Source of the DNA: Candidatus Moraniibacteriota bacterium
Lineage (GTDB): Bacteria > Patescibacteriota > Minisyncoccia > Moranbacterales > UBA1568
Length of the DNA stretch: 64,000 nt
NCBI GenBank assembly: GCA_030648835.1
Contig: JAUSGT010000002.1
Span: 200,081 to 264,080 of the forward strand
Direction of reading: 5' to 3'
Part shown: positions 11,744 through 63,992 of the stretch, in pieces
Layout: every line of letters begins with the position of its first letter
Position numbering within the stretch: the first letter of the stretch is position 1
Made by a program: the position numbers and the translations under genes
Notes under the pieces: generated by a model
Told to the model about the DNA's origin: nothing
Database searches by the model: none
What the model saw: only the letters and a program-made list of their open reading frames with translations

Positions 11744-11821
11744 GGGTTATACGAAAAGCCAGAGGCTTTTTTGTTTATCTTTTGTCTAGATTCTAAATCC
11801 CATATTCTAAATTCCATTTTT

Positions 11822-12238: not shown

Positions 12239-12283
12239 TTTTTTTGGTTATTGATTATTGGTGATTGGTTATTGTAAATATAT

Positions 12284-36734: not shown

Positions 36735-36828
36735 TGTTTGGAAACTTCAAAATACAAATTTCAAATTTTAAAATTAGAGACTGAATAAAAACAGTCTGTT
36801 TATGTATCCATCATAAATTTTTTCTGGT

Positions 36829-40979: not shown

Positions 40980-41798
40980 ATGAATACTCATGGAACAGAC
41001 CGCTCGGTACCGACTATGCAACAGGTGAAGCAGCTGGGGATTTTACTTGGATTCATCCTGGAAATTGTGACCAGGATCGTTACACGCTATTTCTTCGCCT
41101 TGAACTCTGACGAAGCGAAGGCTACGCTCCAGAACAAAGGAGCCCTTTCCAAGAAAATCAAGGTTGCGCTTGCGCCGGTGTTTATGATGGCAGTCGATGA
41201 ATATGCTGCCCAACGAACGTATTGGGAAGGCATCTATCTCACTCACTACGGCATGGCTGCGGATTTCGGCGAAGTAACGGTGCCGGAGAAACCGACAGTC
41301 GGCAAGTGGCGCCTCATTTTCATTCTGAAGGGATTGACGATGAATCACGCGGCGGCCATGTACCGAAAAATTCTTGCGGCCATCGATCCACCGTGGCAAC
41401 TGGTACAGTATATCGATGATTTGGACGCGCAGATTCCTTACAACATTCGTACTTCGGCAGAATCCTATGCTCTTTGGGTACGGGATGGGCAAGAGGCTGA
41501 CGAGGAATTTCGTGCTCAAACGACCAGCCAAGCCGATCCGAATCAATTGATTGGTGTCACGCCGCTCGAGCGTCTCGTTCATGGAGCAGCCCATTTTGTT
41601 GAAACCAAACAACACCTCGACGAGAAAGGGATTACTATCTGTTCAGGTTCGCGCAATGCGGATGGCTGCGTGCCTTGCGTGTGCTCGTATCCGGACAGTC
41701 GCGAGGTGTGCGTGTTTTGGTACAATCTGGGCTATTCGTTTTCCGCTGGCGGTGTCCGTCGAACAGTAGCGCTGCCGCAGGCGGCGCAGACAGCTTAA
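40980..41798 (+). CDS. DGR target protein (variable C-terminal ligand-binding region)
   Basis: 272-aa ORF whose last ~40 codons are the VR (SRNADGCVPCVCSYPDSREVCVFWYNLGYSFSAGGVRR). N-terminal hydrophobic segment. Confidence 0.75.
   Translation: MNTHGTDRSVPTMQQVKQLGILLGFILEIVTRIVTRYFFALNSDEAKATLQNKGALSKKIKVALAPVFMMAVDEYAAQRTYWEGIYLTHYGMAADFGEVTVPEKPTVGKWRLIFILKGLTMNHAAAMYRKILAAIDPPWQLVQYIDDLDAQIPYNIRTSAESYALWVRDGQEADEEFRAQTTSQADPNQLIGVTPLERLVHGAAHFVETKQHLDEKGITICSGSRNADGCVPCVCSYPDSREVCVFWYNLGYSFSAGGVRRTVALPQAAQTA
41645..41766 (+). repeat. DGR variable repeat (VR)
   Basis: 122 bp that differs from the TR at 16 positions, all where the TR has A and the VR has T or G. Confidence 0.8.
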
Positions 41799-42106
41799 CC
41801 TCGATTCTCAACTCTTTTTCTCTTTTTTCCCCGCTGTGCGCGTGCGCGCAGCGGGCTTTTGTTTTTGTCTTTTTCCATCCTTTTCTCGAAAGCTTTGAGA
41901 AGTTGTTGTATACTACAGAAGGTTGTTAAGCCAGTCTTGCTTGGGCAAGATGATGGTTTGCCAAGAACTGAAACTGCCTGTGAGTATTTACGCATAGATT
42001 TTTCATGGTAGGAAATGATGCGACACAGCGCTCGTGACCACGAGGAACACAGATGCTCTGGCGACAGAGGTTCGGTGATAGGGATGGATACTCACAGTAA
42101 AGATGG

Positions 42107-42228
42107 AGGTTCGCGCAATGCGGATGGCAACGTGCCTTACGTGAACTCGAATCCGGACAATCGCAAGGTGAACGTGAATTGGTACAATCTGGACAATTCG
42201 AATTCCGCTGGCGGTGTCCGTCGAGAAG
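42107..42228 (+). repeat. DGR template repeat (TR)
   Basis: Non-coding cognate of the VR with A at all 16 variable positions, rich in AAC/AAT codon-equivalents. The overlapping ORF 42015-42281 is probably not a gene. Confidence 0.8.
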
Positions 42229-42249
42229 TTTCAACACAAGAACATCCCG

Positions 42250-42624
42250 CTAGAGTGCGGGATTTTGTGTCAGGTATTTGATCCAACCATTCGTCATTTT
42301 GGAAGTTTCAACGAGGAGAGCAGCTACCTCGATGTATGATTTTTCAGGGATGACCTTTTGTTCATATTCTATGCGCACCAGGTGTTTCAGGATTTCCAGA
42401 GAGACGCGTACATGCTCGAGTATTTCTCGTTTCTGATATTTCTGCGTGAGCGAGGCGCGAAGGATACCGCTCATGGTTTCTAGCGTGAGATGCTCAATAA
42501 CCTGGTGGATACCGAGTTTATCTCGTTTGGGAATCTTGTGTCCAATTTGGTACAGAGTGGCATATACTTGTTTGATACTATGAACAATCGAAATATCATT
42601 ACTCCGAAGGGGGGGGGGTAACAC
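42250..42624 (-). CDS. avd: Avd-like accessory variability determinant (four-helix-bundle family)
   Basis: 124-aa helical protein between the TR and the RT. Size and placement are typical of DGR Avd, though it is divergently oriented. The N-terminal PPP is encoded by a C10 tract. Confidence 0.55.
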   Translation of the reverse strand: MLPPPLRSNDISIVHSIKQVYATLYQIGHKIPKRDKLGIHQVIEHLTLETMSGILRASLTQKYQKREILEHVRVSLEILKHLVRIEYEQKVIPEKSYIEVAALLVETSKMTNGWIKYLTQNPAL

Positions 42625-42715
42625 TAGAGGAAATTTTTTTCATGATATTATCAGTGTAGCAAATCTTCTCGCCGCTTGGAAAGAGTTTCGGAAGGGAAAA
42701 AGGAAAAAAGGTGAT

Positions 42716-43672
42716 GTGGCTTTGTTTGAATTTCAACTGGAAGACAACTTACTGCAACTGCATCAAGAGCTGGCTTCCCAGACCTACAGGCACGGTCCCT
42801 ACGAAGGTTTTTATGTTTCTGATCCCAAGTTGAGGCACATTCACAAAGCTAGTGTGCGCGATCGAATTCTGCATCAAGCGATTTTCCGTGTGCTATATCC
42901 GATTTTTGACGCGCATTTTATTTATGATTCGTATTCATCGCGCGTTTCCAAGGGTACCCACTTTGGCGTGAAGCGCCTCTTGCAAGCCTGTCGCAAAGTA
43001 AGCGAGAATTGGAAAGCTCCGGCGTACGCGCTGAAATGTGATATACGCAGGTTTTTTGATTCGATAGATCATGCAATTTTGCGCAAGCTCGTCGTAAAGA
43101 AAATTACCGACCATAAGACGCTATGGTTGATCGATATCATTTTTGCAAGCTTTGAGAAAGAAAAAGGGAAAGGACTGCCGCTCGGAAATGTCACCAGCCA
43201 GCTTTTTGCCAATATCTATCTCAATGAGCTGGATCAATTCGCGAAACATACATTGAAGGCGAGGCATTACTTCCGTTATTGCGATGATTTTATTATTGTT
43301 CACCGCAATCGGATTTTTCTTGAAGAAGCATTGGTAAAAATAAGAGCCTTTGTTTCTGAAACATTGTTTTTGGAACTGCATCCTTATAAAGTGGAAATCC
43401 GCAAAGTCAGTCAGGGAATCGATTTTCTGGGCTATGTCATTTTGCCACACCGGACAGTCGTGCGGATGGCTACCAAGAGCCGTCTACTACGAAAGTTAAA
43501 CGATGCCCGAAAAAACTTTCGGACCGGGAAGATAACAGGAGAGACGTTTGGAAGTATTATACATTCTTACCTCGGCGTACTTTTACACTCACGGAACCGG
43601 AGAATAAGAAGATGGGTATGGAAGTTACGCGAGTTGACACAAAGCGGAGATAAAAATGTAAAGTGGCGGTGA
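42716..43672 (+). CDS. DGR reverse transcriptase
   Basis: RT motifs DIRRFFDSIDH (A), LPLGNVTSQLFANIYLNELD (DGR-type motif 4/B) and RYCDDFII (YxDD). Conserved N-terminal residues continue in frame upstream to about 42647 without a canonical start codon. Confidence 0.85.
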   Translation: MALFEFQLEDNLLQLHQELASQTYRHGPYEGFYVSDPKLRHIHKASVRDRILHQAIFRVLYPIFDAHFIYDSYSSRVSKGTHFGVKRLLQACRKVSENWKAPAYALKCDIRRFFDSIDHAILRKLVVKKITDHKTLWLIDIIFASFEKEKGKGLPLGNVTSQLFANIYLNELDQFAKHTLKARHYFRYCDDFIIVHRNRIFLEEALVKIRAFVSETLFLELHPYKVEIRKVSQGIDFLGYVILPHRTVVRMATKSRLLRKLNDARKNFRTGKITGETFGSIIHSYLGVLLHSRNRRIRRWVWKLRELTQSGDKNVKWR

Positions 43673-44011: not shown

Positions 44012-44141
44012 CCCGGTAGTAGAACTTCGAAAGTTTTGGTATAGTAACGATATCTTCGGTATTCCTGCAATATGGGCTTTGTTGAAGCAAAAAATATAAT
44101 TCTTTTTTAAAACTTCGTTTGTTCGAAGTTTCACTACCGGG
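44012..44141. repeat. Inverted 20-mer pair R1/R2 (cccggtagtagaacttcgaa ... ttcgaagtttcactaccggg) abutting the murA start codon
   Basis: 18/20 complementary arms about 90 bp apart. The right arm ends 1 nt before the murA ATG. Confidence 0.55.
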
Positions 44142-44142
44142 T

Positions 44143-45405
44143 ATGGAAGTTTTTGAAATCGAGGGCGGAAAACGGCTCAAAGGACGGATTGCTGTTTCGG
44201 GACTGAAGAATGCCGCAACGCCCATTATTGCCGCGACGCTTCTCTCCAAAGAACCATGCGTCTTGAAAAATATCCCTCGTATCGAGGATGTTTTTCGCAT
44301 GCTGGAAATCTTAGAGAGCATGGGAGCGACAGCCAGGTGGCAGGGGCGGTCAACGGTGATGATCGATACGCGCGCGGTTGATCCAAAAAAAATAGACCAG
44401 GACAAAGTCAAGCGCTTACGTTCGTCGATTTTTCTTCTGGGAGCTTTAGCCGGTCGTTTTGAAAAATTTCATTTGCGGCAACCCGGCGGGTGTGTCATCG
44501 GCGCGCGTCCGGTAGAAACGCACATTGATGCTTTGACAAAACTGGGAGTGAAGATTGTCTCGGATGAAAAAGGGTATGCCGTCGATGCCGGAGGGAGGCA
44601 GAGTGCCAACATAGTGCTCAAAGAGTTTTCCGTGACAGCGACGGAGAATGCGATGCTTTTGGCCGCGACGCTTCCCGGAGTTACACAGATAAAAATTGCC
44701 GCTTGTGAACCGCACGTCGAAGATCTTGGACATTTTCTCGAAAAGATGGGCGCGCGGATCGAAGGACTGGGAACCCATACGCTTCGGATAACGGGCAAGA
44801 AACGACTCATCGGTGTGACACATACGATCGTTCCCGATCACAACGAGGCCGCGACATTTCTCATTCTTGGCGCGGCTACCGGAAGCGAAATCGCTGTCGT
44901 CAACGCTCGGAAAGAACACTTGGATATTGTTCTTGAGAAATTGGAGGAGTTTGGGGTTCGTTTCACGGTAAAGAAAAATGAGATTACGGTGCATCCCGCC
45001 AAAAAATTACGAGCTGTTTCAAAAGTCGACACCCGCACGTATCCCGGAGTTCCTACCGAGACGCAAGCGCTCTTCGGTATGCTCGCGACGCAGGCGGAGG
45101 GGGAGACACTCATTTTTGAAACTTTGTATGAAGGGCGTTTCAACTACATTCCCGAACTGGTGAAGATGGGAGCCAGAGCGACTATTCTCAATCCGCATCA
45201 GGTTATTGTTTCAGGGAAGACGCCACTCAAAGGGACAGTCATAAAGAGTTTTGATTTGCGCGCGGGGGCGACGCTTATTATCGCCGCGCTGGTCGCTCGG
45301 GGGAAGACGATTATCGAAGATATTTATCAGGTGGATCGCGGCTATGAACGTATCGAAGAGCGTCTGCAGAAAATTGGCGCGCGGATACGCCGGGTAGATT
45401 TGTAG
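44143..45405 (+). CDS. murA: UDP-N-acetylglucosamine 1-carboxyvinyltransferase
   Basis: MEVFEIEGGKRLKGRIAVSGLKNAATPIIAA EPSP-synthase-fold N-terminus. Start at the internal ATG. Confidence 0.9.
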   Translation: MEVFEIEGGKRLKGRIAVSGLKNAATPIIAATLLSKEPCVLKNIPRIEDVFRMLEILESMGATARWQGRSTVMIDTRAVDPKKIDQDKVKRLRSSIFLLGALAGRFEKFHLRQPGGCVIGARPVETHIDALTKLGVKIVSDEKGYAVDAGGRQSANIVLKEFSVTATENAMLLAATLPGVTQIKIAACEPHVEDLGHFLEKMGARIEGLGTHTLRITGKKRLIGVTHTIVPDHNEAATFLILGAATGSEIAVVNARKEHLDIVLEKLEEFGVRFTVKKNEITVHPAKKLRAVSKVDTRTYPGVPTETQALFGMLATQAEGETLIFETLYEGRFNYIPELVKMGARATILNPHQVIVSGKTPLKGTVIKSFDLRAGATLIIAALVARGKTIIEDIYQVDRGYERIEERLQKIGARIRRVDL

Positions 45406-45417
45406 AAAAAAGATATG

Positions 45418-45540
45418 CCCGGTAGTAGAATTTCGACCAGGCAATTTCAGGAGTGTATACACTAAGTTTAAACCAGAGGATTAAGAAGTGGCATAAGTTT
45501 CTTTGATGTATTAAATACATTGTCGAAATTTCACTACCGG
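45418..45540. repeat. Inverted 19-mer pair R3/R4 (cccggtagtagaatttcga ... tcgaaatttcactaccggg) abutting the mreB start codon
   Basis: Same architecture as R1/R2, with compensatory C:G to T:A changes in both arms. Confidence 0.55.
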
Positions 45541-45542
45541 GT

Positions 45543-46559
45543 ATGAAATCGATGTTTGTACGAAAAATCGGTATTGATCTCGGGACGACGAATACCCTGG
45601 TATTCGTGCCCGGCAAAGGAGTCGTCGTCAATGAACCTTCGGTGGTGGCGATTTCTTTGCTTGAGAACAAAGTGTTGGCTGTCGGGAACGAGGCCAAAGA
45701 AATGCTGGGGCGCACGCCGGATACGATCATCGCCAGCCAGCCACTGAGAGATGGAGCCATCGCCGATTACCGCGTGACGGAGGCGATGCTCAAATATTTC
45801 TTGAATCGCGTGAGCGGTCGGATTCGTTTTTTTCGTCCGGAAGTGGTCCTCTCTATTCCGGCCGGTGTCACTTCAACGGAGCGACGTGCTGTCATTGACG
45901 CGGCGCTCAAGGCCGGTGCCAAAGCGGCGTACGTGGTGAAGGAGCCGATTTTGGCGGCCATAGGCGCGGGTATCCCGATTCACGCGGCGCAGGGGAATAT
46001 GATCATCAATGTCGGTGGTGGCACATCGGAGATTGCTATCATTTCTCTTGGTGGTATCGTGGCGGCGCACAGCGCCCGCGTTGGCGGTAACCGGATTGAT
46101 CAGGCCATTTCCGATTACATCAAGCGCAAATACAGTTTGGCTATCGGTGATCGGACAGCAGAGGAAATCAAAATAAAAATCGGATCAGCCATCGCTCAGG
46201 TGAAGGAGGACCACGTAGAAGTGCGCGGTCGCGATCTGATGGGGGGATTGCCGAAAACCGTCCTCATTTCTTCCAACGAAGTGACGGAAGCTATTCAGGA
46301 TGAGTTACGGGAAATCATCAATGTTATCAAGACTGTCCTTCAAGAAACACCGCCGGAATTGGCGGCGGATATTATGGACAAGGGGATGGTACTTTCGGGA
46401 GGGACAGCTCGGCTCAAGCATTTGGATCAGCTTATTTCCAAAACTATCAACGTGCCGTGTTATGTGGCGGATGACCCAGCATTGTGCGTGGTGAAAGGCA
46501 CCGGCATCGTACTGGAGAATCTGGAAGTGTATAAAAGGAGCATTATGCTTGCAAAATAG
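45543..46559 (+). CDS. mreB: Rod shape-determining protein MreB
   Basis: IGIDLGTTNTLVFV actin-fold phosphate-1 motif. Confidence 0.9.
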   Translation: MKSMFVRKIGIDLGTTNTLVFVPGKGVVVNEPSVVAISLLENKVLAVGNEAKEMLGRTPDTIIASQPLRDGAIADYRVTEAMLKYFLNRVSGRIRFFRPEVVLSIPAGVTSTERRAVIDAALKAGAKAAYVVKEPILAAIGAGIPIHAAQGNMIINVGGGTSEIAIISLGGIVAAHSARVGGNRIDQAISDYIKRKYSLAIGDRTAEEIKIKIGSAIAQVKEDHVEVRGRDLMGGLPKTVLISSNEVTEAIQDELREIINVIKTVLQETPPELAADIMDKGMVLSGGTARLKHLDQLISKTINVPCYVADDPALCVVKGTGIVLENLEVYKRSIMLAK

Positions 46560-46796: not shown

Positions 46797-47960
46797 ATGT
46801 TAATAGGTATCGATGCATCGAGAGCATTTCTCAGACGGCGGACGGGGATCGAGGAATACGCTTACCAGACCATCAAATACTTGTGCAGTGTCATTTCTGG
46901 AAAAGACACTGTTGTTTTGTATATTCGTAAAAAATTGGAAGTCGAAAATTGGAAATTGAAAATTCGCACGCCCGAAATAGACTTTGAAGTACCGAAAAAT
47001 TGGGAAGTAAGAGGCATATGGGCGCCACGCTTTTGGACACAGATTGGTCTATCGCTTGAGATGTTGTGGCGAGCGCCTGACGTGCTTTTTATTCCGGCCC
47101 ATACCGTACCTTTGGTACATCCCAAAAAAACTATCGTGACGATCCATGGTTTGGAATACGAATTTTGCAAAAAGGGGTATGCGTGGTGGGAGCGGCTCTA
47201 TATGCATTTCTCTATTCGTTACTCATGTCGGGTCGCCTCTACGGTGGTTTGTGTTTCGGAAAATACCAAACGGGATGTGATGAAACTCTATGGCGTAGCG
47301 GAAGAGAAGATCAAGGTTATTTATGAAGGGTATTCGACTTGTCATTCCGAACGAAGTGAGGAACCCCGTAACATTCAGGAAAGCGATACAAAGGACGGGA
47401 TCCCTCGGCAAGCTCGGGATGACGTCAAAAAACCATATCTTCTTTTTACTGGGAGATTGGAAACGAGAAAAAACATTGTGCGGATTATCGAGGCTTTTGA
47501 GATATTGAAAGAAAAATATTGCATTCCACATCAGTTAGTGCTCGTTGGCAAACCAGGATATGGGTATGAGCGTATCAAGTATCAAGTATCAAGTATCAAG
47601 TATAAGAGTGATGTTATCGAACTCGGCTATGTGAGCGAAGGAGAGAAATGGGAGTTGTTGAAAAACGCCGATGTATTTTTGTTTCCGACATTGTATGAAG
47701 GGTTTGGGCTGCCGGTTCTGGAGGCACAGAGTGTCGGGGTGCCGGTCGTGGTTTCCAGCATTTCATCTTTGCCAGAGGTGGCGGGTAGTGGCGCGGTATT
47801 GGTGGATCCATTGAGTGTGGAAAGCATCGCAGAGGGCATAGAGAAGGTGCTTTCGGACAAGGGGCTGCGAGATGATATAATAGAAAAAGGATTGAAGAAC
47901 GTGGGACGTTTCAGTTGGCAGAAATGCGCGGAGGAAATTGTGGAATTACTCCAGAAATGA
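46797..47960 (+). CDS. GT4-family glycosyltransferase containing a 7-bp tandem repeat
   Basis: C-terminal GT-B motifs (FLFPTLYEGFGLPVLEAQSVGVPVV). Carries (gtatcaa)x4 at 47572-47599. Confidence 0.8.
   Translation: MLIGIDASRAFLRRRTGIEEYAYQTIKYLCSVISGKDTVVLYIRKKLEVENWKLKIRTPEIDFEVPKNWEVRGIWAPRFWTQIGLSLEMLWRAPDVLFIPAHTVPLVHPKKTIVTIHGLEYEFCKKGYAWWERLYMHFSIRYSCRVASTVVCVSENTKRDVMKLYGVAEEKIKVIYEGYSTCHSERSEEPRNIQESDTKDGIPRQARDDVKKPYLLFTGRLETRKNIVRIIEAFEILKEKYCIPHQLVLVGKPGYGYERIKYQVSSIKYKSDVIELGYVSEGEKWELLKNADVFLFPTLYEGFGLPVLEAQSVGVPVVVSSISSLPEVAGSGAVLVDPLSVESIAEGIEKVLSDKGLRDDIIEKGLKNVGRFSWQKCAEEIVELLQK
47572..47606 (+). repeat. Heptanucleotide tandem repeat (gtatcaa x4 + gtataag) within the GT4 coding sequence
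   Basis: Direct reading. The unit is not a multiple of 3. Currently in frame, encoding IKYQVSSIKYK. Confidence 0.8.
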
Positions 47961-48301: not shown

Positions 48302-49480
48302 ATGAAAAGTCAAGAGACAGAAGTGAACAAAAAAAGACCTCAAAAAGTGGCTTTAGTTCACGATTTTTTGGTGGCGTACGGAGGTGCGGAGCGGGTACTT
48401 CAGGCAATGGCTGAGATGTTCCCGGAAGCACCGATTTATACGCTCCTGTATGATAAAGAGCAAATGGGCGATCATTTTCATGGTCGGGATATCCGAGTAT
48501 CGTGGCTTTCCAAGCTGCCGCAGTTTTTGAAAAAACGCTATCGTTTTTTTCTGCCGTTTTTCCCGGTGGCGGTGGAGTCGTTCGATCTTCGGGACTTCGA
48601 TCTGGTGATTTCTTCTTCGGGAGCATGGAGCAAGGGTATTGTGACGCGCCTCAATACGAAACACATCGCGTATCTGCACTCCCCGATGCGTTATGCCTGG
48701 GATTACCATGAAACATATTTGGGGGAATTGGGCGCTCGTGGAAAGTTACGTATTTTCACCCGGATGCTTATGAGTTATCTTCGGGTGTGGGATCGGCAGG
48801 CGGCGGAGCGGCCGGATGCCCTTATCTCCAACTCCCGGTTTACAGCGGCGCGGGTGAAGAAATACTATCGGCGAGAGAGTGAGGTGGTATACCCACCGGC
48901 AATGGATTTATTTAATAAGACACAGAATACCCGTTCGATAGAGGCAGAGATCCCTCGACAAGCTCGGGATGACAGTGGAAGTCGCCGTCACTTTTTGGTC
49001 GTATCGCGTCTGACTCGTTCCAAAAAAATTGACAGAGTTATTGAAGCATTCAACAAGCTGGAACTTCCGCTTCTGATTGTCGGTGATGGACCGGAGCGTG
49101 CCCGCCTCCAAGCCCAGGCAGAAAAAAATATCCGCTTCGTAGGATTCACCAGTGATGAAGAGTTGGCGAAATTGTATGTTTCCGCTCGGGCCGTTATCTT
49201 TCCTTCGGAAGAAGATTTTGGTATGGTGGCGGCGGAGGCGCTTTCTTTCGGTACGCCGGTGATCGCGTATGAATATGGCGGCATTCGGGAAATCGTGAAA
49301 CTTGGGGAAACTGGGGAATTGTTTCATGCGGAGACGCCGGAAATTATCGCTGAGGGGGTGCGGCGGTTTCTCCAGCATGAGGGGCAGTACGATGAAGTGG
49401 CGATGAAGCAATCGGTGGCGCATCTGACGAAAGAAAATTTTCAGAATGGTATAAGAAAGTTTTTGGAAATGAATGTGTAA
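48302..49480 (+). CDS. GT4-family glycosyltransferase
   Basis: GT-B C-terminal domain motifs (EDFGMVAAEALSFGTPVIA). Confidence 0.8.
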   Translation: MKSQETEVNKKRPQKVALVHDFLVAYGGAERVLQAMAEMFPEAPIYTLLYDKEQMGDHFHGRDIRVSWLSKLPQFLKKRYRFFLPFFPVAVESFDLRDFDLVISSSGAWSKGIVTRLNTKHIAYLHSPMRYAWDYHETYLGELGARGKLRIFTRMLMSYLRVWDRQAAERPDALISNSRFTAARVKKYYRRESEVVYPPAMDLFNKTQNTRSIEAEIPRQARDDSGSRRHFLVVSRLTRSKKIDRVIEAFNKLELPLLIVGDGPERARLQAQAEKNIRFVGFTSDEELAKLYVSARAVIFPSEEDFGMVAAEALSFGTPVIAYEYGGIREIVKLGETGELFHAETPEIIAEGVRRFLQHEGQYDEVAMKQSVAHLTKENFQNGIRKFLEMNV

Positions 49481-52427: not shown

Positions 52428-54314
52428 TTATGGTTTTTGGATGTAGTAGACGAAGATGGAGTCGCCGGCACGAGTCACTGGAGTTATATCTTTGAGCCAG
52501 GCATAATTGCGTTCGCCGGGCTGTTTTGTTTTATAGAGGCTCTGCTGATAGAAGAAAGACGAAATGGCATACCAGCCAGCTTCCGGTTCGCGAGTGTCCC
52601 ACCAGCCGATATATTTGTCTTTGAGATAATAAGCTGGACTGGCTCCGCCGAAATAATCGATGCGGATTTTGTCGATGCGCGGGAAATTTGCGCCAAGAGG
52701 ACAGTCTGTATAGATGCTTGTTTCTTTCTCGTCTTTGCAATTGTTTTGATGTTCGACAAAATTTTGCAGGTGTTTCAGGTCCTGACCCCAGTCGTAGTTG
52801 GAGTCGGTGACATACTTATAACCATTGAGATGCCCACCGGCAGCGGCGTTGAAATAAGAAAGATAATTCGGGTAGGCGAGGATAGGAATAGCTATAATTG
52901 ACAACGTCAATCCGCCAAGAATAATTGAAAGAACCTTTTTGGTTGTTTTGTTGTTTTCGTGGCGTCTGAAGAGATCAAAAGCAGTTTTTGCTATGAGCAT
53001 ATACAGAAACGGAAGAATTGGGAAAAGATGGCGGAAGCCGATATTGAGATTCCCAGTGATACTGATATAACTATAAAAAAGAATAAAAAATACAGCGAGA
53101 TACTCAGTGATGTTATTTTGGAAAGAACGAGAAAGGAAAGAAACCCCATCGGTTGATTTTTCGCGAATAACAACTCTTCCCATGCGGTAGAGAGCGTAGA
53201 GAGAAGTAAAAGCGAGAAGAAAAAGAAAGGGCAGCGTTTCTTTGAGGAGGAAAACAACAGGGAAATACCATGGTGAGGCAAGGTTGGTTACGGTACCGAG
53301 AAAGTAATGGTCATTGCCGCTGGCGACGCGAGCAAAGACCATGAAGACACCGAGGAAATATTCACTGAGTGGCTTAAGGAAATTGCTCTCGCTTGTCTTG
53401 ATCACGAATGCGTGCGCGAACTGTGCAAGTTGGTTTTTTTGTCCGAGCGAGAAGTTGGCGGCATCGACAAGTTTTTCTGCCGGCATATTGATTGTGTTCC
53501 ACGCGTACAGCAACCAAATAAGCGCGAAACAGATGAGGACACTCCCGGCAAATTTAAGGCCGTATTTAAGGATTGTTTGAAGTGTAAAAGAAAGAGAGCT
53601 TCGTTTATCATCGGCAGTTTTTTGTTTTGTGATGGCATAGAGGATAACAAAAAGTCCAAAAACAGGAAATAGCAGGACTGCGGAAAATTTGGAGAGCTCC
53701 GCTAGCCCCAGAAAGATTCCTGCTATAAAGACGTTTTTGAAACTTGGCTTTTTCAAGAAACGGATGAAAAAATAAAACGCGAAGAAAATGAAAGCGGCGA
53801 TGCCGATGTCGGTCGTCACATAGTGGTTGTGAGCGATGATATTGGGGTCGAAAGCATACAAGGTAACCGCGAAAAGTCCTGCCAGTGTCCCCGCCAGTTC
53901 TCTGGTCCAGATGAAGATAACGAAACCGAGTATGACAGCAACCAGAGTAACAGGGATGCGTGACCAGAAAAGGATGGTATCAGCGTCATTGCAAATGACA
54001 TCCGGTCGCGTGCAATTGACGAACATATCGCCGATAGCCCACTGTTCGTTAATACCGGATTGCCACTGAGGCGTGTCGATGGGAAAAGATGGCTGCAAGA
54101 AAAGAAGTGGAAGTCCCGCGAGATCTTTGAGGAGGGGCGGGTGTTCGGGATTGAGACGCATATCACCGTAACGAACATAGCTATAAGCAGCCGGAATGTG
54201 AGCCTTTTCGTCAAAAATCATGGATTCTTGTTTGGATACCGAAAGAGACAGAACAAAATGGAAGGCAAGAATCCCGGTGACAATGAGAAACGCGTGTTTT
54301 TTTAAGAAGTTCAT
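52428..54314 (-). CDS. GT39/ArnT-like polytopic membrane glycosyltransferase
   Basis: Multi-TM N-terminal region with PMT/ArnT-like loop motifs. Confidence 0.65.
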   Translation of the reverse strand: MNFLKKHAFLIVTGILAFHFVLSLSVSKQESMIFDEKAHIPAAYSYVRYGDMRLNPEHPPLLKDLAGLPLLFLQPSFPIDTPQWQSGINEQWAIGDMFVNCTRPDVICNDADTILFWSRIPVTLVAVILGFVIFIWTRELAGTLAGLFAVTLYAFDPNIIAHNHYVTTDIGIAAFIFFAFYFFIRFLKKPSFKNVFIAGIFLGLAELSKFSAVLLFPVFGLFVILYAITKQKTADDKRSSLSFTLQTILKYGLKFAGSVLICFALIWLLYAWNTINMPAEKLVDAANFSLGQKNQLAQFAHAFVIKTSESNFLKPLSEYFLGVFMVFARVASGNDHYFLGTVTNLASPWYFPVVFLLKETLPFLFLLAFTSLYALYRMGRVVIREKSTDGVSFLSRSFQNNITEYLAVFFILFYSYISITGNLNIGFRHLFPILPFLYMLIAKTAFDLFRRHENNKTTKKVLSIILGGLTLSIIAIPILAYPNYLSYFNAAAGGHLNGYKYVTDSNYDWGQDLKHLQNFVEHQNNCKDEKETSIYTDCPLGANFPRIDKIRIDYFGGASPAYYLKDKYIGWWDTREPEAGWYAISSFFYQQSLYKTKQPGERNYAWLKDITPVTRAGDSIFVYYIQKP

Positions 54315-54322
54315 AGAGAGAA

Positions 54323-55966
54323 TTATTCTGGGAGAAGAAAATTATCTTTTAGTTTGGGGAGAACCACAACGTTGAAATCTCCTCCGGTGCGCTCCGGCCC
54401 GTTCATATCGATGTGTTCAACATACGCCTCCGGATACAGTTTCTGAATCTGCCCGGTGAGGACATCATTGTAATTGAGCATAAGAAATATTCCGGGTCGG
54501 TGAAGAACCGTATCTTTTTGCACGATTTCGAGGCGGTCAACCTTATGATAGGTGAGAAAATAGACCGGGTGAGCGAAAACAGGTAAGGTGGAGAGGTTGT
54601 TGTTGCCTTTCTCGTCAATGAGCACATACTTATATGTTTCTTTCGGTAAAGAAATGAGGTAGCGGGCCATATTGGTGTAGTTTTCGTTAAAAGAAGCGGC
54701 GGCAGATTCATTGTGAGTGAAGAAAACAAAATATTTTGTGAGATTGAAAACAGCGCTCCCCAAGAGAGCGACGATAAGGAGCGAAAAGAGGGCAACGCGG
54801 GCTCCGGTTTGCGCACGAAGGGCCTTGCGGATTATCCAAAAAGCCGGGAGAGCGGCCATGAGAAAAACCGGCGCCTGTGTGCCGATGGAGCGGAGCGCGT
54901 GTGGCAAACTCTCATTGGTGAGGAATTCGGGCATGAGCATAACAAAAAACGATCCGAGGAGAAAAAAATCCGTGATGAGACGCGTATCTCGGTCACCTCT
55001 CCGGATACGCCGACCGAGGAGGATAATCGTTTGCGATATGACAAAGAGAAAGCCAGCGAGGAAAAATGTTCCGACAAAAGGATCGAGAATCGGATAGGGA
55101 GGATAATTGTGGCGGAAATTCTGGTCACCGAAGAAGTTGTACTTTATGAGTGATAGGGAAAATGTTTTTGCCAGTGTTCCGAAGGGGTCCCCGTGATTGG
55201 CTTCCGCCGAAAAGACAGAAATATGGGATGAACGCGAAGCAAAGTCTTCCGGATGCAAAACGAAAAAATGATAGAGCATGGGCATTGCCGCGATGAGCGC
55301 TGCCAGAAAAAAGAGCGCCGCGTGTTTCCAAAAACGGCGGAGAAAATTTTCGTATGAGAGGATCAGGGCGGGAAGAAGAATGATGAGGATGAGGGGGGCG
55401 ACGCGAAAGGCGATATACGTGTGTAATCCCAACCCAAAGAGAAGTCCGGAAAAGATGAAATCGTGGAATTTTCTCGTGCGGAGCCCGCGAAAGAAAAAGT
55501 AGAACGAAAAAGAGAGGAGGAAGGTCGTCATGATGGCTCGAAAACCGATGCGGGAGAAATTGATCGCCCAATAGGAAGTGGCGAGCATAAACGCGGCAAG
55601 GATGCCCACGATACGGCGGTGGAAGAGTTCTTTTCCCAAAAGATAGATGCCAAGGACGGAAAAAGTTCCGAAAAGAATAGACCAGAGTTTCAGTCCGGTG
55701 ACAGTGTTGCCGAAGATGGCGATCGAGAATGCCTGCAGATTGATAAAGAGTCCTTCACGTCCGAAATTGGCGGGGTAGAAAAGTTTGAAGTCTTTGCTCT
55801 CGAGAGCGTGAAGGGCGTCAACACCATTGGCGGCCTCGTCGGGGTAGAGTCCGGCGGGGGCGGTTTCGATGTGGTAGATCCTGACGGTGAAGGCGAGAAT
55901 GAGGATGACAGCGAGAGCAACCCACGTCGCGATGTGGTGAGGAAGATGAGTGGAACGCTGACTCAT
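54323..55966 (-). CDS. GT39/ArnT-like polytopic membrane glycosyltransferase (second paralog)
   Basis: RIYHIETAPAGLYPDEAANG...FGREGLFINLQ ArnT/PMT signature. Start at the internal ATG (MSQRSTHL). Confidence 0.7.
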   Translation of the reverse strand: MSQRSTHLPHHIATWVALAVILILAFTVRIYHIETAPAGLYPDEAANGVDALHALESKDFKLFYPANFGREGLFINLQAFSIAIFGNTVTGLKLWSILFGTFSVLGIYLLGKELFHRRIVGILAAFMLATSYWAINFSRIGFRAIMTTFLLSFSFYFFFRGLRTRKFHDFIFSGLLFGLGLHTYIAFRVAPLILIILLPALILSYENFLRRFWKHAALFFLAALIAAMPMLYHFFVLHPEDFASRSSHISVFSAEANHGDPFGTLAKTFSLSLIKYNFFGDQNFRHNYPPYPILDPFVGTFFLAGFLFVISQTIILLGRRIRRGDRDTRLITDFFLLGSFFVMLMPEFLTNESLPHALRSIGTQAPVFLMAALPAFWIIRKALRAQTGARVALFSLLIVALLGSAVFNLTKYFVFFTHNESAAASFNENYTNMARYLISLPKETYKYVLIDEKGNNNLSTLPVFAHPVYFLTYHKVDRLEIVQKDTVLHRPGIFLMLNYNDVLTGQIQKLYPEAYVEHIDMNGPERTGGDFNVVVLPKLKDNFLLPE

Positions 55967-56063
55967 AAACAGTATTATCTTTTTGTTTTTTATGGTAGAA
56001 TTATAGCAGAAATAACGGATATTTACTACTCCAGAGTGGAAGCAAACTTCCACTATACTTGCT

Positions 56064-58160
56064 TTGTTTGGTAATAAGCAAAAAAGAAAAACTAAAATGG
56101 GTGGTTTCATGGAGTTTAGCCGCAAGTTGATGGGGAGAGCCGGAGATGAAAAATCTTCCGGTGGTTTGGCGTTGTCTGGATTGAATCCTCAGCCCGGAGA
56201 AATAATTTTTACCGATCGACACGTGACAATGCCAAAAAAAGAAGTGATTGCTGAAACTGCCGTAGCCAAGGCTGCTTTGGATTTGGTCAAGAGAGTGAAT
56301 GGAAAAAACCATACTGTAGCCCCAGCTTTCCGTTTGGGGACCGGAGAAGTTTTTGCTTCTTCGCAGGGGGAGGATGGTGTACGGAAAAATATTGCTTCGC
56401 CACCGGTTCAGCCGGCAGTGGAGAAAGTAGCGGTTTCAAAAATGGATGTCAGCGTAAAGGAAGACGCTGGCTTACAGCAGGCTACCCCGAGTGACACAGG
56501 AGAAAATATTGGTAGGGTTAAGGAAGTATCGGAAGACCTAGGGAGTCAAGGCGCTACTATGAGAGTACACACGGAAACTGGAAGTATAAGGGGTAGTAAA
56601 AAAATAACGATGGAGCATCCGTTTCAAGCGGTTGAGAAAAGCCATTTACGTAGGAGCGCCAAGCATTTGAGAGAAGGAGATTTATCTGATCAGGTGAGAG
56701 AAGGGTATCTGAAACAACTTACGAAAGTTCAGGCGAGAAAACGGACGGCTACCAAAGAGGATGTTACAAAAGCGAGATCCTTACGAAAGGGTATTTTAGG
56801 AAGTATTGAGCAAAAAAAGATCGATACCGCAGATCAGGCTCAAAGAGAAGAGGAAGAACACCGAGTAGAGCAGGAAAAACTTGCTCGCCTTGAAGCTTTT
56901 AAGAATGAGAATCCGGACTATTATCAAAAGTACGAAGGGGAGATAGCAAAACTCGAGCCGGCCTTCGCTCAAGAGTTTGAAGCCAGCAGGGAGGCTTACA
57001 AGACGTGGGAGCTTTCTTTGAAAAGAAGTGATGGTAAGCTGTTGAAATCTCAAGAGGAAAGCCCGGAGAAAGCAGAAGCGCAGGCTCGTATGGCTGCAAT
57101 GGATGTGCGTTTTCACAAAATGGCAGATCTTGTAGAGGAATTCAATAACCTTGATACGCGCCTTCCGGAAGATGGTCTCAAAGGGCTACTGCTTCTTACG
57201 GAGATGCGCGCGTTGGAAAAAGAAATGCCCAAGAATGCCCAGGAGAAAAAGAAAAAGGTTCTTGACAAACAAAAAGAGATGTATGGGAGCGAGGAACCGA
57301 ATGTGGAACTTATTGAAAAAGGGCATATTCAGGTACTTATCAAGAGAGAGTTGGAAGTGTTGAAAAGAAATTGCGAAAAAGTTCGCGAAAGAGAGCTATT
57401 CATGACAAATAATTTCCCTAACATCGGACAACTGGAAGACCACATACAGTCATTGGCAGATTTGGCTGATTCTTTCGATGATGAGACACCGATGGCGGAG
57501 GTGGAAAAAGCGCTAGAAGAGTTGAGAACACTCGAAAACATGGCTTTTAGTGAAACGCCTCCCGAAAGAGGTAAACCTTTTGGAAAAAAAGCCGGAATAA
57601 AAAGATTGCGGGATGACAAAGAAGTTGCTGGGGGTGCTAAGGGGGAGAGAAAATTTGTGAGAAATCGCGGGGATAAACGAGATCTGGCGTTGGATGAAAC
57701 AGGCGAAGGCGCGAGTCAAGAACCGATTCCGGACAAGCAAAAGAGCGATATGTTACCACAAGGAAATACAGGTGATACGGCTGATGCGGCATCTGATATT
57801 GAGACGTTCCCTATGGATGAACTACCGTCATTCGAAACGGTCGTCTCGGAGAGTGAACGGCAGGGGATTGTTGGAGAGTTACAAGGATTTATAGATGGAG
57901 GATTAGTTGATATTGTCGATTATTTGAAAGAGACAGGAAACAAAGAACTGGGAGCATTGTTAAATAGTAAAAGCCCAGAAGACATAAAGGTGATGGACGA
58001 AGTAGTTCAACCTCTTCTGGACACGATTAGCACGAGTATGCTGAATGTTGCAATCGCATGTGGGGAGAGAATAAAATCTGCAACGCCGGATATTGTAGTT
58101 TCTGCTATTCATAAAAAAGGAACCGATTTGTTAATCGAGGCACAGATGCGATACCTATGA
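56064..58160 (+). CDS. Large charged coiled-coil hypothetical protein (about 690 aa)
   Basis: Long ORF, E/K-rich, no recognisable domain. Start is uncertain (56064, 56097 or 56109). Confidence 0.55.
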   Translation: MFGNKQKRKTKMGGFMEFSRKLMGRAGDEKSSGGLALSGLNPQPGEIIFTDRHVTMPKKEVIAETAVAKAALDLVKRVNGKNHTVAPAFRLGTGEVFASSQGEDGVRKNIASPPVQPAVEKVAVSKMDVSVKEDAGLQQATPSDTGENIGRVKEVSEDLGSQGATMRVHTETGSIRGSKKITMEHPFQAVEKSHLRRSAKHLREGDLSDQVREGYLKQLTKVQARKRTATKEDVTKARSLRKGILGSIEQKKIDTADQAQREEEEHRVEQEKLARLEAFKNENPDYYQKYEGEIAKLEPAFAQEFEASREAYKTWELSLKRSDGKLLKSQEESPEKAEAQARMAAMDVRFHKMADLVEEFNNLDTRLPEDGLKGLLLLTEMRALEKEMPKNAQEKKKKVLDKQKEMYGSEEPNVELIEKGHIQVLIKRELEVLKRNCEKVRERELFMTNNFPNIGQLEDHIQSLADLADSFDDETPMAEVEKALEELRTLENMAFSETPPERGKPFGKKAGIKRLRDDKEVAGGAKGERKFVRNRGDKRDLALDETGEGASQEPIPDKQKSDMLPQGNTGDTADAASDIETFPMDELPSFETVVSESERQGIVGELQGFIDGGLVDIVDYLKETGNKELGALLNSKSPEDIKVMDEVVQPLLDTISTSMLNVAIACGERIKSATPDIVVSAIHKKGTDLLIEAQMRYL

Positions 58161-60632: not shown

Positions 60633-63600
60633 ATGGCATCCAAAGAATTCGATATACTAAAAGCGATTCAAGCAGGGGCGAAGACCGGGAGCGAAGAGCT
60701 CGAGGGCCAGCTTGGCATTGGTGGAAAAGACAAGAAAAAATATTCACCAAAATCCCGTAAGTCCGCTAGAGCCGCTGTAACGTCTGAAATTGCTCCGGGC
60801 ATTCCCGTTACCCCGGTTGTTGTGGAACCGATGTCGGCATCGGCAGATGTCATTGTACCCAAAAAACTGAGAGGGCGGCGGAGACAAGGTGGAGGAGATA
60901 AAGGAAAAAAATCAGAAAGTATAACTATTTCTTCGGCGATGCAAGCTCCGGCCTTGCCCAATGTTGTTGTGGCGCCTGATTCAGAAGCAGCAAAATTGAA
61001 CCGCGTTTCTCCCATTGATCTTTCGGAAGTGAAGAACGGAAAAGACTTTCAATTTGCTGACAAAGATGGAAGCGACTTCATTGTGAGAGCGGATAATGAA
61101 ACACCGGGCCATTACCTTCTTCTTTCCGGAGATGGAAAACGAGTTTTAGGTTCTTTTGGCGAAGGCCATATAAGGGGAATAATAGAAGATGAAAGAGTGG
61201 AAGCGGTTGTTGAGCCAGTAGCATCAGCTTCAATGGAACCAGTAGCAATGGCAGAACCAGAACTGACAGTTGAACCTGCAATGGCTACTATCCCGAAAGC
61301 AGTTATCCCGGACGCCATCACCAAGCCTTTCATATCTACTCCAGAAGTGGAAGCGTCTCTCAATGCGGGTCTAAACGCTTTGGAGAGAGGCGAAACATTG
61401 CGTTTTGTCGGGAAAACCGGAGATATTTATAGGGTGAGCAAACGAGATAGTGTTCATTATAATTTGACACAGCCTGATGGGAGGATTGATGCGGTTAATG
61501 AGATATATTTACGGGAACAAATGGAGGGGAACTGGACGCGTTTGGAAAACGAAGAACCGGAACTGCCCAAGGGAACCACTCCGGAAAATCCTTCCGTTTC
61601 TCCTACTGAGAGAGAAAAGCTTGAACAGAAAATTGCCGCCTTGAAAAAAGAGGTGGAAGATCTACGCAAAGAATATGTAAAAGCAGATTACGAAGAGACG
61701 AATGCGTGGGCGAGGGTGAGGAAGTTTTTCGGAAAAAATTTGAAAGGTCTCGGTGAGAGAGACTGGCAGGAAAAACAATATAATAAGAAAGATGGTAATT
61801 CAGATGGTGTGTACATGCAGGCATTGTATCAGAACAAACTGGTTGATTTGAAGAATGCAGAGCTGTCTTTGATCAAGGAGCGCGCAGCCGCAGGCGATGG
61901 ATGGAAAAAAGAAATGGGCGATATGATCAAATACTTCGGTGTGGATGAAGTGACGAAGTTGATAGACGCCCGCACACAGTATCGGGCGGAGAATCAGAAT
62001 TTTCCGACGAAAATACTCGACGCATTTGGGGCTTTGGGAAGAGAGTATAACAAGCTTTCCATGAAACAAAAATTGGCTATTACTGCTGTCTGTGCAGCTG
62101 GGACGATTGGGCTTACTTTATCCGGTGGCACGGCGGCCGGTGCGATGGCTGGTTTGATCATGGGCGGAAAAAGATTTTTTGCGACTGCCGGACTGACGGT
62201 CGGTACGGAGGCCCTGCTTGATAGTTCCCGGACAAGGATGCGTAGCAAAGAAATGGAAGAAGAAATGAAGACGCTCGAAAAAGAGATGTCCGAAAAAGGA
62301 TTTGCCCACCTCGAAGCTGTTATCAAGAATAAAGCGCTCTCGATCGATGATGAGCTCCAGAAGGCGAAACTGACGAAGTTGCTCCACAAGGCCGGTGCAT
62401 TGACTGTTGGTTTGGCTGTCGGTTCCGGTTGGCTGACGCAGGTAGTGATGGATCATTTTGGCGGGCATGAAGCCGTCGATTGGGTGAAAGAGCACGCTAA
62501 AAATCTTATGGGAGATTATACTGTGATCCATCCCAAAGCAGAATTTGCCGCAAAAATGCCGATAGATCTTGATTTAGATTCAGACGCGCGGGACAGCGCT
62601 ATGGCCGCGGCCAGCCAAGCTCCAGTGATGTCTGGAGGTGTTCCTGACCCAGGTCTTGAACTGGATTCAGACGCGCGGGACAGCGCTTACTTGGCAGCGG
62701 ATAAAGGATCAGCGTCGCCTGGTAGTGCTTTTATCACAGGGAACGAATCAGAGTTGGACATGCGGGACAGCGCCCAAATAGCAGCAGGCCAAGCAGAGAC
62801 AGTTCCTGGGAATCTTTCCGGTACAGGCGATGGATCAGAGTTGGACATGCGGGACAGCGCTCAAGCAGTAGTAGAACAAGCGAAGGAATCACCTAGCAGT
62901 GCTTTTATCACAGGGAACGAATCAGAATTGGATATGCGGGCTGACAATCCACTAGCAAGTGAAACGGGCAATGGATCAGAGTTGGATATGCGAGATAGCG
63001 TTCAGATTGCGGCTGCCACAGCCGCTGAAGCGAGGCCTAGCATCATCAATGAGTTTATCAATCAAGACATCACCGTGAAGAAAGGCGATTCAGTATGGAA
63101 AATTGCCGGCAGGTTGGCGAAAGAACTTGGGATAGACGAAAAAAGTCCTCAAGGCACGCGTTTCATCAATGCCTTGAAAAATCAGTATGGGGATGTCTTA
63201 CTGAAAGAGGGATCTGTCATCAATCTTGCAGATAGCGGTATAGACAAGGAATTTGTCGAAAATGCATATGCAGATGCCACTACCTTGTCACCGGAAAAGA
63301 TGGCGAGTATCGCGGCCAACGATGTGAAGCTTCGGGAATTTGCGGCGGCTCATCCGGATGTCACGCTGACGGACGGCAAAGTGGATGATATTTTACATGG
63401 GAATGGAGCGGATCCGGCGGGGAAAACAAATCTTGGGTGGGAACATGGAGATGATGAAACCATAAACTATAATGATCATACGGTGAGAGAAACACCATCG
63501 GAAGAGAATATGGACGATCTTGTTTCTGATTCATCATCTGATACTCAGGCGGAATCCAGTGGAGCAGCCGCGTCGGAAAACGAAACGGTAATTGTAACTC

Positions 63601-63992
63601 GCGATGAGGGATCGGTAAAAAGTGCTGACATAGAATATGAGCGGGATATTCGTTTGGGGAAAGCGTACGATATCAATGTATATAAGGAGTATTTTGTGCA
63701 AAATCCGGAAGCATTCGGAGCATATAAAAAACTGGGAGAAGGCTATCTGGGGTTCATTTCGCAGGGCGATGCGAGCGCGATGAGATCTTTGGGAGGCAAG
63801 ACATTCCGCGAGTTAGGGAATATTGTGAGCGATCCTTTGGGGAGATTTGTGGCGTTGGCCAGGGAAGTCTATGGGAGTAAACTCGGTCTGCCCGGTCCGA
63901 AAGAAAAAGTGTATGAATATGTGGCGCGCATGGCGATGATCGGTATGGAACATCCGGAAGGCAAACTCATTCGGATTCCGCAGTCGATATGA
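60633..63992 (+). CDS. Giant membrane-anchored hypothetical protein (1119 aa) with acidic tandem repeats and a LysM-like segment
   Basis: Central TM helices (AITAVCAAGTIGLTLSGGTAAGAMAGLIMGG), repeats of (G)SELDMRDSAQ / LDSDARDSA, and a LysM-like ITVKKGDSVWKIAGRLAKELGID. Confidence 0.6.
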   Translation: MASKEFDILKAIQAGAKTGSEELEGQLGIGGKDKKKYSPKSRKSARAAVTSEIAPGIPVTPVVVEPMSASADVIVPKKLRGRRRQGGGDKGKKSESITISSAMQAPALPNVVVAPDSEAAKLNRVSPIDLSEVKNGKDFQFADKDGSDFIVRADNETPGHYLLLSGDGKRVLGSFGEGHIRGIIEDERVEAVVEPVASASMEPVAMAEPELTVEPAMATIPKAVIPDAITKPFISTPEVEASLNAGLNALERGETLRFVGKTGDIYRVSKRDSVHYNLTQPDGRIDAVNEIYLREQMEGNWTRLENEEPELPKGTTPENPSVSPTEREKLEQKIAALKKEVEDLRKEYVKADYEETNAWARVRKFFGKNLKGLGERDWQEKQYNKKDGNSDGVYMQALYQNKLVDLKNAELSLIKERAAAGDGWKKEMGDMIKYFGVDEVTKLIDARTQYRAENQNFPTKILDAFGALGREYNKLSMKQKLAITAVCAAGTIGLTLSGGTAAGAMAGLIMGGKRFFATAGLTVGTEALLDSSRTRMRSKEMEEEMKTLEKEMSEKGFAHLEAVIKNKALSIDDELQKAKLTKLLHKAGALTVGLAVGSGWLTQVVMDHFGGHEAVDWVKEHAKNLMGDYTVIHPKAEFAAKMPIDLDLDSDARDSAMAAASQAPVMSGGVPDPGLELDSDARDSAYLAADKGSASPGSAFITGNESELDMRDSAQIAAGQAETVPGNLSGTGDGSELDMRDSAQAVVEQAKESPSSAFITGNESELDMRADNPLASETGNGSELDMRDSVQIAAATAAEARPSIINEFINQDITVKKGDSVWKIAGRLAKELGIDEKSPQGTRFINALKNQYGDVLLKEGSVINLADSGIDKEFVENAYADATTLSPEKMASIAANDVKLREFAAAHPDVTLTDGKVDDILHGNGADPAGKTNLGWEHGDDETINYNDHTVRETPSEENMDDLVSDSSSDTQAESSGAAASENETVIVTRDEGSVKSADIEYERDIRLGKAYDINVYKEYFVQNPEAFGAYKKLGEGYLGFISQGDASAMRSLGGKTFRELGNIVSDPLGRFVALAREVYGSKLGLPGPKEKVYEYVARMAMIGMEHPEGKLIRIPQSI

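Follow-up and report, generated by a model that had tools for sequence, protein, structure and literature searches.

A short heptanucleotide repeat inside a GT4 glycosyltransferase gene of Moranbacteria as a candidate phase-variation switch

Phase variation through simple sequence repeats (SSRs) is textbook knowledge for the host-adapted pathogens Neisseria, Haemophilus and Campylobacter, in which switching classically exceeds about 1e-5 per generation. The subject of this report is a perfect heptanucleotide array, (GTATCAA)x4.6, inside a gene for a glycosyltransferase of the GT4 family on contig JAUSGT010000002.1 of Candidatus Moraniibacteriota bacterium; it was analysed within a stretch of 64,000 nucleotides (nt) of that contig (hereafter the window), and it is probably, though by no means certainly, a hotspot of slipped-strand mispairing that serves as a translational ON/OFF switch of the enzyme. 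The pglE gene of N. meningitidis and N. gonorrhoeae encodes a galactosyltransferase of protein glycosylation that is phase-varied by an intragenic heptanucleotide repeat, gain or loss of a unit frameshifting the enzyme and altering the surface glycan (PMC7157529). The Moranbacteria gene resembles pglE in carrying a 7-nt SSR within the open reading frame (ORF) of a glycosyltransferase, but its arrays have about 4.4 copies in a narrow range, number up to four per gene at positions conserved lineage-wide, and include one within a structured helix of the catalytic domain, and its host is an uncultivated member of the Patescibacteria rather than a host-adapted pathogen. In Escherichia coli K1, the neuO gene of prophage CUS-3 encodes an O-acetyltransferase that modifies the surface polysaccharide; its 5' end holds 3-53 copies of 5'-AAGACTC-3', read in all three frames as a 7-amino-acid (aa) peptide repeat, and the gene, which is ON only at a frame-keeping length, was OFF in 65.6% of 64 genomes (PMC13001214). 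Here too a heptanucleotide coding repeat would leave the gene ON only when the frame is kept, but the Moranbacteria arrays are internal and of about 4.4 copies, and nearly all consensus alleles are ON; the resemblance claimed to pglE and neuO is mechanistic only. Haemophilus influenzae has heptanucleotide SSRs both in promoters (hmw1A and hmw2A, 13-38 copies) and in a gene for a TonB-dependent receptor (AACAACC, 1-13 copies) (PMC2651432), and a few GT4 orthologs likewise have arrays upstream of the start codon in addition to those inside the gene; unlike the GT4 tracts, those of H. influenzae are long and highly polymorphic between strains, and the promoter ones modulate transcription. What appears to be new relative to these switches is the combination of very short tracts of nearly fixed length, several to a gene and mostly in the ON state, in an uncultivated lineage of the candidate phyla radiation (CPR). 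Among the papers listed by literature searches that paired CPR or Patescibacteria with phase variation or SSRs, none linked the two.

The repeat tract and its predicted slippage products

46797 to 47960, + strand: GT4 (GT-B fold) glycosyltransferase gene, 387 aa, intact, predicted ON allele (ORF, Pfam, AlphaFold)
47572 to 47603, + strand: perfect array of heptanucleotide units, (GTATCAA)x4.6, referred to as "site 3" across the gene family (sequence, Tandem Repeats Finder, shuffles, structure model)
47600 to 47606, + strand: degenerate fifth unit GTATAAG, whose TAA (47603-47605) is the in-frame stop after a +1-unit slip
47632 to 47634, + strand: TGA that ends the frame of the -1-unit (and +2-unit) alleles made in silico
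47694 to 47708, + strand: YEGFG motif, aa 300-304, in the C-terminal catalytic domain (invariant in a 34-sequence alignment)

Four perfect GTATCAA units (47572-47599) are followed by GTAT, giving a perfect period-7 run of 32 nt, and the degenerate fifth unit matches GTATCAA at 5 of its 7 bases. Tandem Repeats Finder reports the tract as period 7 with 4.6 copies, 100% matches and a score of 64, the top short-period array of the window, and a perfect-repeat scan found it to be the sole perfect repeat with at least three copies and a period of at least 5 in the 64 kb; a 21-nt probe of three GTATCAA units had no match in 100 dinucleotide-preserving shuffles. The tract lies in frame within the ORF, where it encodes ERIKYQVSSIKYKSD (aa 258-272), and has the attributes of an SSR of the switching kind, being a perfect tandem repeat inside an ORF with a unit length not divisible by three. 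All 25 lag-7 positions of the tract are identical, wobble positions included; because the wobble positions are identical between units, the process that forms the repeat acts on DNA, and protein-level selection for a heptad was ruled out as its cause. The window as a whole has a modest excess of period 7 (three arrays at a score of at least 10 versus 0.1 expected, period 6 having four), and the strong period-7 signal is specific to this gene, not genome-wide.

The 387-aa product is predicted to be a glycosyltransferase of the GT4 family and GT-B fold, with matches to Glycos_transf_1 (PF00534; 1.2e-37, 129.6 bits versus a cut-off of 26.4) and Glyco_transf_4 (PF13439; 5.8e-13, 49.7 bits versus 28.5), and AlphaFold models it as two Rossmann domains (predicted local distance difference test score, pLDDT, 88.5; predicted template modelling score 0.84). 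The YEGFG...E309 stretch, invariant in the 34-sequence alignment, is the EX7E-type motif region of the C-terminal domain. The protein is 100% identical to one from a Candidatus Moranbacteria metagenome-assembled genome (MAG) at NCBI, present on a single contig, of 635,596 bp, in the collection; its only sequence match in the PDB is a distant MshA-type enzyme, and a search of NCBIfam gave no model or equivalog above its cut-off. Its substrate is probably an envelope glycan, because the gene lies within a conserved murA-mreB-GT4-GT4-holB neighbourhood.

Slipped alleles were simulated by editing the window sequence in silico. With its 4.6 units the present allele reads as ON. Loss of one unit yields a 276-aa product ending ...SSIRVMLSNSAM, and gain of one a 271-aa product ending ...IKYQV at the TAA of the degenerate fifth unit, whereas gain or loss of three units keeps the reading frame. 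Both truncated products end before YEGFG and have lost most of the C-terminal catalytic domain. The sequence-only reading had described four perfect 7-bp units and a degenerate fifth in the coding region of a GT4 glycosyltransferase, and had held that gain or loss of one unit would frameshift the C-terminal GT-B domain: the repeat is confirmed by the sequence, Tandem Repeats Finder and the ORF translation, the family by two Pfam domains above their gathering scores and the modelled two-Rossmann fold, and the frameshift is borne out by the in silico alleles.

Natural one-unit alleles in related species

OFF alleles were sought among the truncated members of clusters of at least 90% identity on long contigs, and by a search with only the N-terminal domain as query, which brought up further truncated proteins. 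Four one-unit deletion alleles were found in three related species, at sites 2, 2a and 3 of the gene, each of which splits it into two ORFs.

P0002 species (75% identical to the window protein), site 2, linker: ON, (AATTCCA)x4.4, in eight assemblies (L083-L089, L180); OFF, x3.4, in L081 and L082
L047 species, site 2a: ON, (CAGGAAT)x5.1, in MAG L047; OFF, x4.1, in L212-L214, from three samples
L210/L211 species, site 2: (CAGTCAA)x4 in L210; OFF, (CAGTCAA)x3, in L211
L210/L211 species, site 3: conserved anchors GY and ELGYV 51 nt apart in intact orthologs with this unit; OFF, (TCAATTC)x3.3, anchors 44 nt apart, in L210

The OFF gene of the P0002 species consists of a 229- or 215-aa ORF and a 159-aa ORF, the rest of the gene being at least 99.7% identical between ON and OFF; its two OFF contigs represent two different single-nucleotide haplotypes, each with a matching ON haplotype, and the same (AATTCCA) deletion recurs on both. 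In the L047 species, ON and OFF alleles show no other difference over the 1.1-kb gene (100% identity). The first 630 nt of L210 and L211 do not differ; the downstream sequence of L210, SIHIQELGYVTAEEKW, runs on in another frame, the gene being called as ORFs of 259 and 110 aa, and L210 thus has a one-unit OFF allele at the very site that the window's tract occupies. Site 3 of L211 (RIMYYVSCIKHQ; GTATCAT GTATTAT GTATCAT GTATCAA GCATCAA) is related to the unit of the window but has decayed. In all, OFF alleles stand at consensus level in at least seven assemblies of three species.

Other length differences and truncations were also noted: the frameshift of L209, near aa 111-126, has no association with a repeat; the split genes of L215 (195 + 177 aa) and L216 (209 + 170 aa), which are without ON references, are frameshifted inside linker arrays or an A8 run; and P0036 and P0191 differ by 7 aa in length at the C-terminus, not at an array. 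Ten further clusters were examined and had no truncated members. A scan of metagenome contigs for the site-3 anchors, underpowered for the purpose, gave 33 orthologs among the at least 120 loci listed, all in frame and none an OFF allele. Together with 80 species-representative orthologs these make 113, none of which is out of frame at site 3; alleles that are out of frame came up only in the search aimed at truncated proteins.

That the repeat is a chance occurrence or an artefact of assembly or sequencing can for practical purposes be dismissed: shuffled sequence gave an expectation of zero, the same architecture recurs across over 100 independent assemblies, the arrays, at about 31 nt, fall well below the k-mer lengths with which the assemblers worked (k141 in the contig names), and separate samples reproduce the OFF alleles.

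Arrays across the orthologs and competing explanations

The main ortholog set comprised the 80 species-representative loci, all from Moranbacteria-type MAGs, and with the window gene 81 sequences; all 80 have a single uninterrupted full-length reading frame. Many of the contigs (L002, L004-L006 and others) are labelled "uncultured Bdellovibrionales bacterium" yet carry the Moranbacteria-type gene at 60-70% identity, with the same synteny where neighbours were checked, and these labels are probably taxonomic mislabels. The second GT4 gene of the locus served as a control:

48302 to 49480, + strand: paralogous GT4 gene, GT4-B (Pfam)

A scan for tandem periods across the 81 orthologs found 62 period-7 arrays in 90 kb of the gene (GT4-A) versus 10 in 429 kb of flanks, a density about 30-fold higher in the gene; the gene also has two arrays of period 14, which is twice 7, and none of periods 1-6, 8-13 or 15. 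GT4-B, which has the same fold and a linker likewise tolerating inserts, has one array in 64 genes (71 kb) versus the 62 in GT4-A. Outside the gene, too, periods 7 and 14 are the commonest, in small counts only. Of the 10 flank arrays, six are close to the gene, at most about 110 nt upstream of its start codon; in L016, L032, L053, L056, L072 and L030, heptanucleotide arrays are found 0-110 nt upstream of the GT4 start, in the leader or an N-terminal extension, among them (AGCTAAA)x4.9 in L056 and (TGCTCCA)x4.3 over the start codon in L072. These leader arrays are possible promoter or 5'-end switches.

At least one array is present in 35 of the 81 orthologs, and some have up to four. The arrays cluster at four fixed places (aa 44-57, 180-197, 204-215 and 258-274 of the query), which correspond to one beta-hairpin, two stretches of the interdomain linker and the helix 257-266. 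In the AlphaFold model, site 1 is the beta-hairpin 38-57, the interdomain linker at site 2 is disordered (pLDDT below 50 at residues 184-202), and site 3 is the helix 257-266 and the loop before strand 273-277, confidently modelled. The counterparts of the first two sites in the window are as follows:

46931 to 46964, + strand: decayed period-7/14 array at site 1 (KLEVENWKLKIRT, beta-hairpin 38-57; Tandem Repeats Finder, 70% matches at period 7 and 90% at period 14)
47345 to 47423, + strand: interdomain linker, site 2 of the orthologs, with hairpin-like inserts HSERSEEPRN...IPRQARDD and no heptanucleotide array

Perfect arrays do occupy site 1 in orthologs such as L037 and L003. At site 3, about 13 orthologs have near-perfect arrays of 4.1-4.7 copies and about 15 more have decayed ones, with units that include AAAAGGC, ATATCAA, ATTCAAA, GCTACAA, AAATTCG, CGCCATT and AAGATGC. 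Among 34 close homologs (61-76% identity), the alignment has no indel over the repeat-encoded segment, and many of them have at these codons the translations of other 7-nt repeats (for example IKNQESRIRN, FKIQNSKFKI, YKLQATSYKL and ILNSQFSIH). At site 3 the segment measures 31 aa in 76 of the 81 sequences, and in-frame variants of plus or minus three units are essentially absent there; the confidently modelled helix and loop account for this fixed length.

The units at one site may differ between species by a single base that is changed in all copies, as in AATTTCC, AATTTCG and AATTTCA, or in GTATCAA of the window versus ATATCAA of L043 and L038. Such a change, repeated in every copy, has the signature of concerted evolution, which in turn would imply repeated loss and gain of units. 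The sequence-only reading had asked whether homologous GT4 genes lack the repeat and whether copy number varies among relatives: in orthologs the same codons hold heptanucleotide arrays built of other units, and one-unit alleles occur in three related species, once at the window's own site. Conservation in frame across homologs, which it took to speak against a switch, is found in part, in that the site-3 length is the same in 76 of 81 sequences, but not throughout, in that natural one-unit alleles exist; and its comparison with contingency loci of surface-glycan genes gains support from the arrays of the orthologs, the exclusivity of period 7 and these same alleles.

The main rival of a switch is a non-adaptive origin, in which a slippage bias of the lineage makes and homogenises 7-nt arrays wherever they are tolerated, OFF alleles being deleterious and removed by selection. 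The consensus alleles, overwhelmingly ON, would fit (the 113 orthologs in frame at site 3, 33 of them among the matches listed), as would a copy number both low and narrow, the conserved in-frame length, the position of arrays on a disordered linker or surface elements, the degenerate arrays of the window beside or in rpsL/rpsG and rpsE, and the small numbers of period-7 and period-14 repeats that lead the tandem periods outside the gene. Tolerance alone, however, predicts periods 3, 6 and 9, of which none was seen; GT4-B and the 429 kb of flanks, intergenic DNA included, are about 30-fold poorer in arrays; a four-copy array is hard to homogenise via frameshifted intermediates if OFF is strongly deleterious; and OFF alleles stand at consensus in at least seven assemblies of three species and recur on two haplotypes. 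This origin is therefore judged unlikely, though not negligibly so. The same observations favour a slippage switch: the only period present is one that breaks the frame, though frame-neutral periods would be better tolerated; the enrichment is confined to this gene and its leader and does not extend to the paralog or the flanks; whole-unit OFF alleles are repeatedly found at consensus frequency in nature; and, since homogenisation of a four-copy array needs out-of-frame intermediates, OFF states must be survivable.

Recombination also contributes to the turnover of arrays. In pairs of genes with about 90% identity, unrelated arrays replace one another at sites 2 and 3, within a divergent block of about 200 nt around site 3 (L004 versus L011) or about 90 nt at site 2 (L006 versus L008). 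Because the divergent blocks reach beyond the array, ordinary mosaic recombination is indicated, and "rewriting" of arrays in situ between close relatives was ruled out, the L004 versus L011 block extending about 200 nt beyond the array. The mobility of these site-3 blocks between genes about 90% identical is compatible with a further explanation, namely that the repeat is stable coding sequence for a surface helix, inherited possibly by mosaic recombination, whose 4.6 copies slip no more than ordinary DNA; so are the constant length and confident helix of the site-3 segment, and the fact that the tract of the window genome is known from one assembly. Ortholog arrays of the same size (4.1-5.1 copies) nevertheless show one-unit alleles, including at this site, and neutral decay would have eroded the 25/25 lag-7 identity at the divergence of the orthologs, which makes this explanation improbable.

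The median length of near-perfect arrays (score of at least 20) is 31 nt (about 4.4 copies), and, bar one composite of 59 nt, all fall between 27 and 37 nt. This uniformity of about 31 nt at all sites, including those upstream of start codons and in intergenic DNA, and a restricted, AT-rich pool of units might indicate that the size and the 7-nt period are themselves functional as a cis-acting DNA or RNA element, independently of frameshifting. Orthologs differ in unit at the same site, however, units from different sites within a genome resemble each other no more than units from different genomes do (permutation p = 0.23), and the RNA fold of the tract is no better than that of shuffles (z = +0.69; no Rfam or other motif search was made), so that such an element is very improbable. 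On the same two results, a genome-specific factor recognising the unit (within-genome sharing of units not being enriched) and an RNA structure at the tract were each rejected.

For the slipped-strand switch of the GT4 gene, then, the following course is proposed. With 4.6 units the gene would be ON; loss or gain of one unit would shift the frame to a stop at 276 or 271 aa and remove most of the C-terminal catalytic domain; and the opposite slip, as established for SSR slippage elsewhere, should restore the frame. Repeated loss and gain of units would keep the arrays homogeneous while the unit sequence changes between species, and the arrays would travel between lineages through mosaic recombination. 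Several observations weigh against this proposal. The window's own tract is known from one assembly, in the ON state, so that we infer rather than observe its copy-number variability, as we do its slipping and the frequency, reversibility and benefit of that slipping. Its 4.6 copies are far below those of characterised heptanucleotide switches (13-38 in hmw1A/2A, 3-53 in neuO), and the slippage rate may accordingly be low; the copy number of the family is narrow, with arrays of 27-37 nt, and nothing like the long tracts of widely varying copy number of hmw, neuO and mod was found. With 80 species-representative and 33 listed metagenome orthologs in frame at site 3, OFF alleles are a minority. 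The gene, conserved at 53-76% identity beside mreB and murA, could be important, in which case OFF would be deleterious. Finally, weaker arrays of about 31 nt near ribosomal protein genes (12244 and 25375) indicate that the mutational process is not confined to the GT4 gene.

A broader proposal, which we advance tentatively and regard as possible rather than probable, is a Moranbacteria-wide contingency system in which one envelope GT4 gene carries up to four short heptanucleotide tracts at fixed codons and in its 5' leader, which would toggle by single units, be homogenised by slippage and be exchanged by recombination. If the switch is real, CPR bacteria would have their first documented phase-variable locus, the use of contingency loci would extend to uncultivated, ultra-small bacteria with very small genomes, and a conserved glycosyltransferase would be a variable surface determinant, by which ultra-small cells that are probably host-attached might stochastically change a surface glycan, for instance as a defence against phage or for attachment to a host. 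The design would be unusual, as a set of very short 7-nt tracts, fixed in position and one of them in a folded helix, would be evolving in concert across a deep lineage, and the tracts could serve as strain-level markers of population dynamics in groundwater and wastewater communities.

Gene neighbourhood and other repeats of the window

44119 to 46559, + strand: murA-like gene (EPSP_synthase family; Pfam) and mreB, conserved upstream neighbours

The neighbours of the GT4 gene are the murA-like gene, mreB, the second GT4 gene, holB and an FtsQ-like gene, and the order murA-mreB-GT4-GT4-holB is kept in orthologous loci; the mreB call rests on the window ORF 45543-46559 and on its syntenic counterparts, which are annotated as MreB_Mbl. 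Farther downstream, a few kb past the GT4 pair and on the - strand (52428-56125), are two adjacent genes for membrane glycosyltransferases of the PMT_2 family (ArnT/PMT-like), which suggests a wider envelope-glycan neighbourhood.

Both GT4 genes share a 24-nt element, ATCCCTCG[G/A]CAAGCTCGGGATGAC, which lies in frame in their interdomain linkers (47400-47423 and 48950-48973) and encodes IPRQARDD, and a second hairpin-like piece (HSERSEEPRN; 47345-47370) stands beside it in the first; the ortholog P0102 has similar inserts (VIPAQAGIQ...IPGQARDDK) at site 1. Inserts of the IPRQARDD and HSERSEEPRN type look like small palindromic elements placed in frame in tolerant loops. A 21-nt palindromic insertion, CCCGCCTGCCGGACGGGCAGG, distinguishes L103 from L054 (98% identical), in frame in the middle of the (GAATATC)n array at site 2.

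Four degenerate period-7 arrays of the window are about 31 nt long like the GT4 arrays, but are decayed and lie beside housekeeping genes: TCTAAAT at the 5' end of the rpsL ORF (11785-11817), TTGGTTA between rpsL and rpsG (12244-12274), AATAACC at the 3' end of rpsE (25375-25404) and AAATTTC upstream of a MurD-like ligase gene (36742-36772).

The window also contains a complete diversity-generating retroelement (40980-43672). Its target ORF (40980-41798; 272 aa, no Pfam hit) includes a variable repeat (41645-41767) that is 85% identical to the template repeat (42107-42229), every core mismatch being an A of the template changed in the variable copy, and its reverse transcriptase (42716-43672) is a 318-aa protein of the RVT_1 family. 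A link between the retroelement and the GT4 repeat was rejected, since the template and variable repeats form a pair that targets the ORF 40980-41798 and since orthologous loci with arrays have no reverse transcriptase between murA and holB. Near the end of the window, an 87-nt tandem repeat of 2.5 copies with 69% matches (62724-62940) lies in an ORF of 1119 aa with no Pfam hit (60633-63992).

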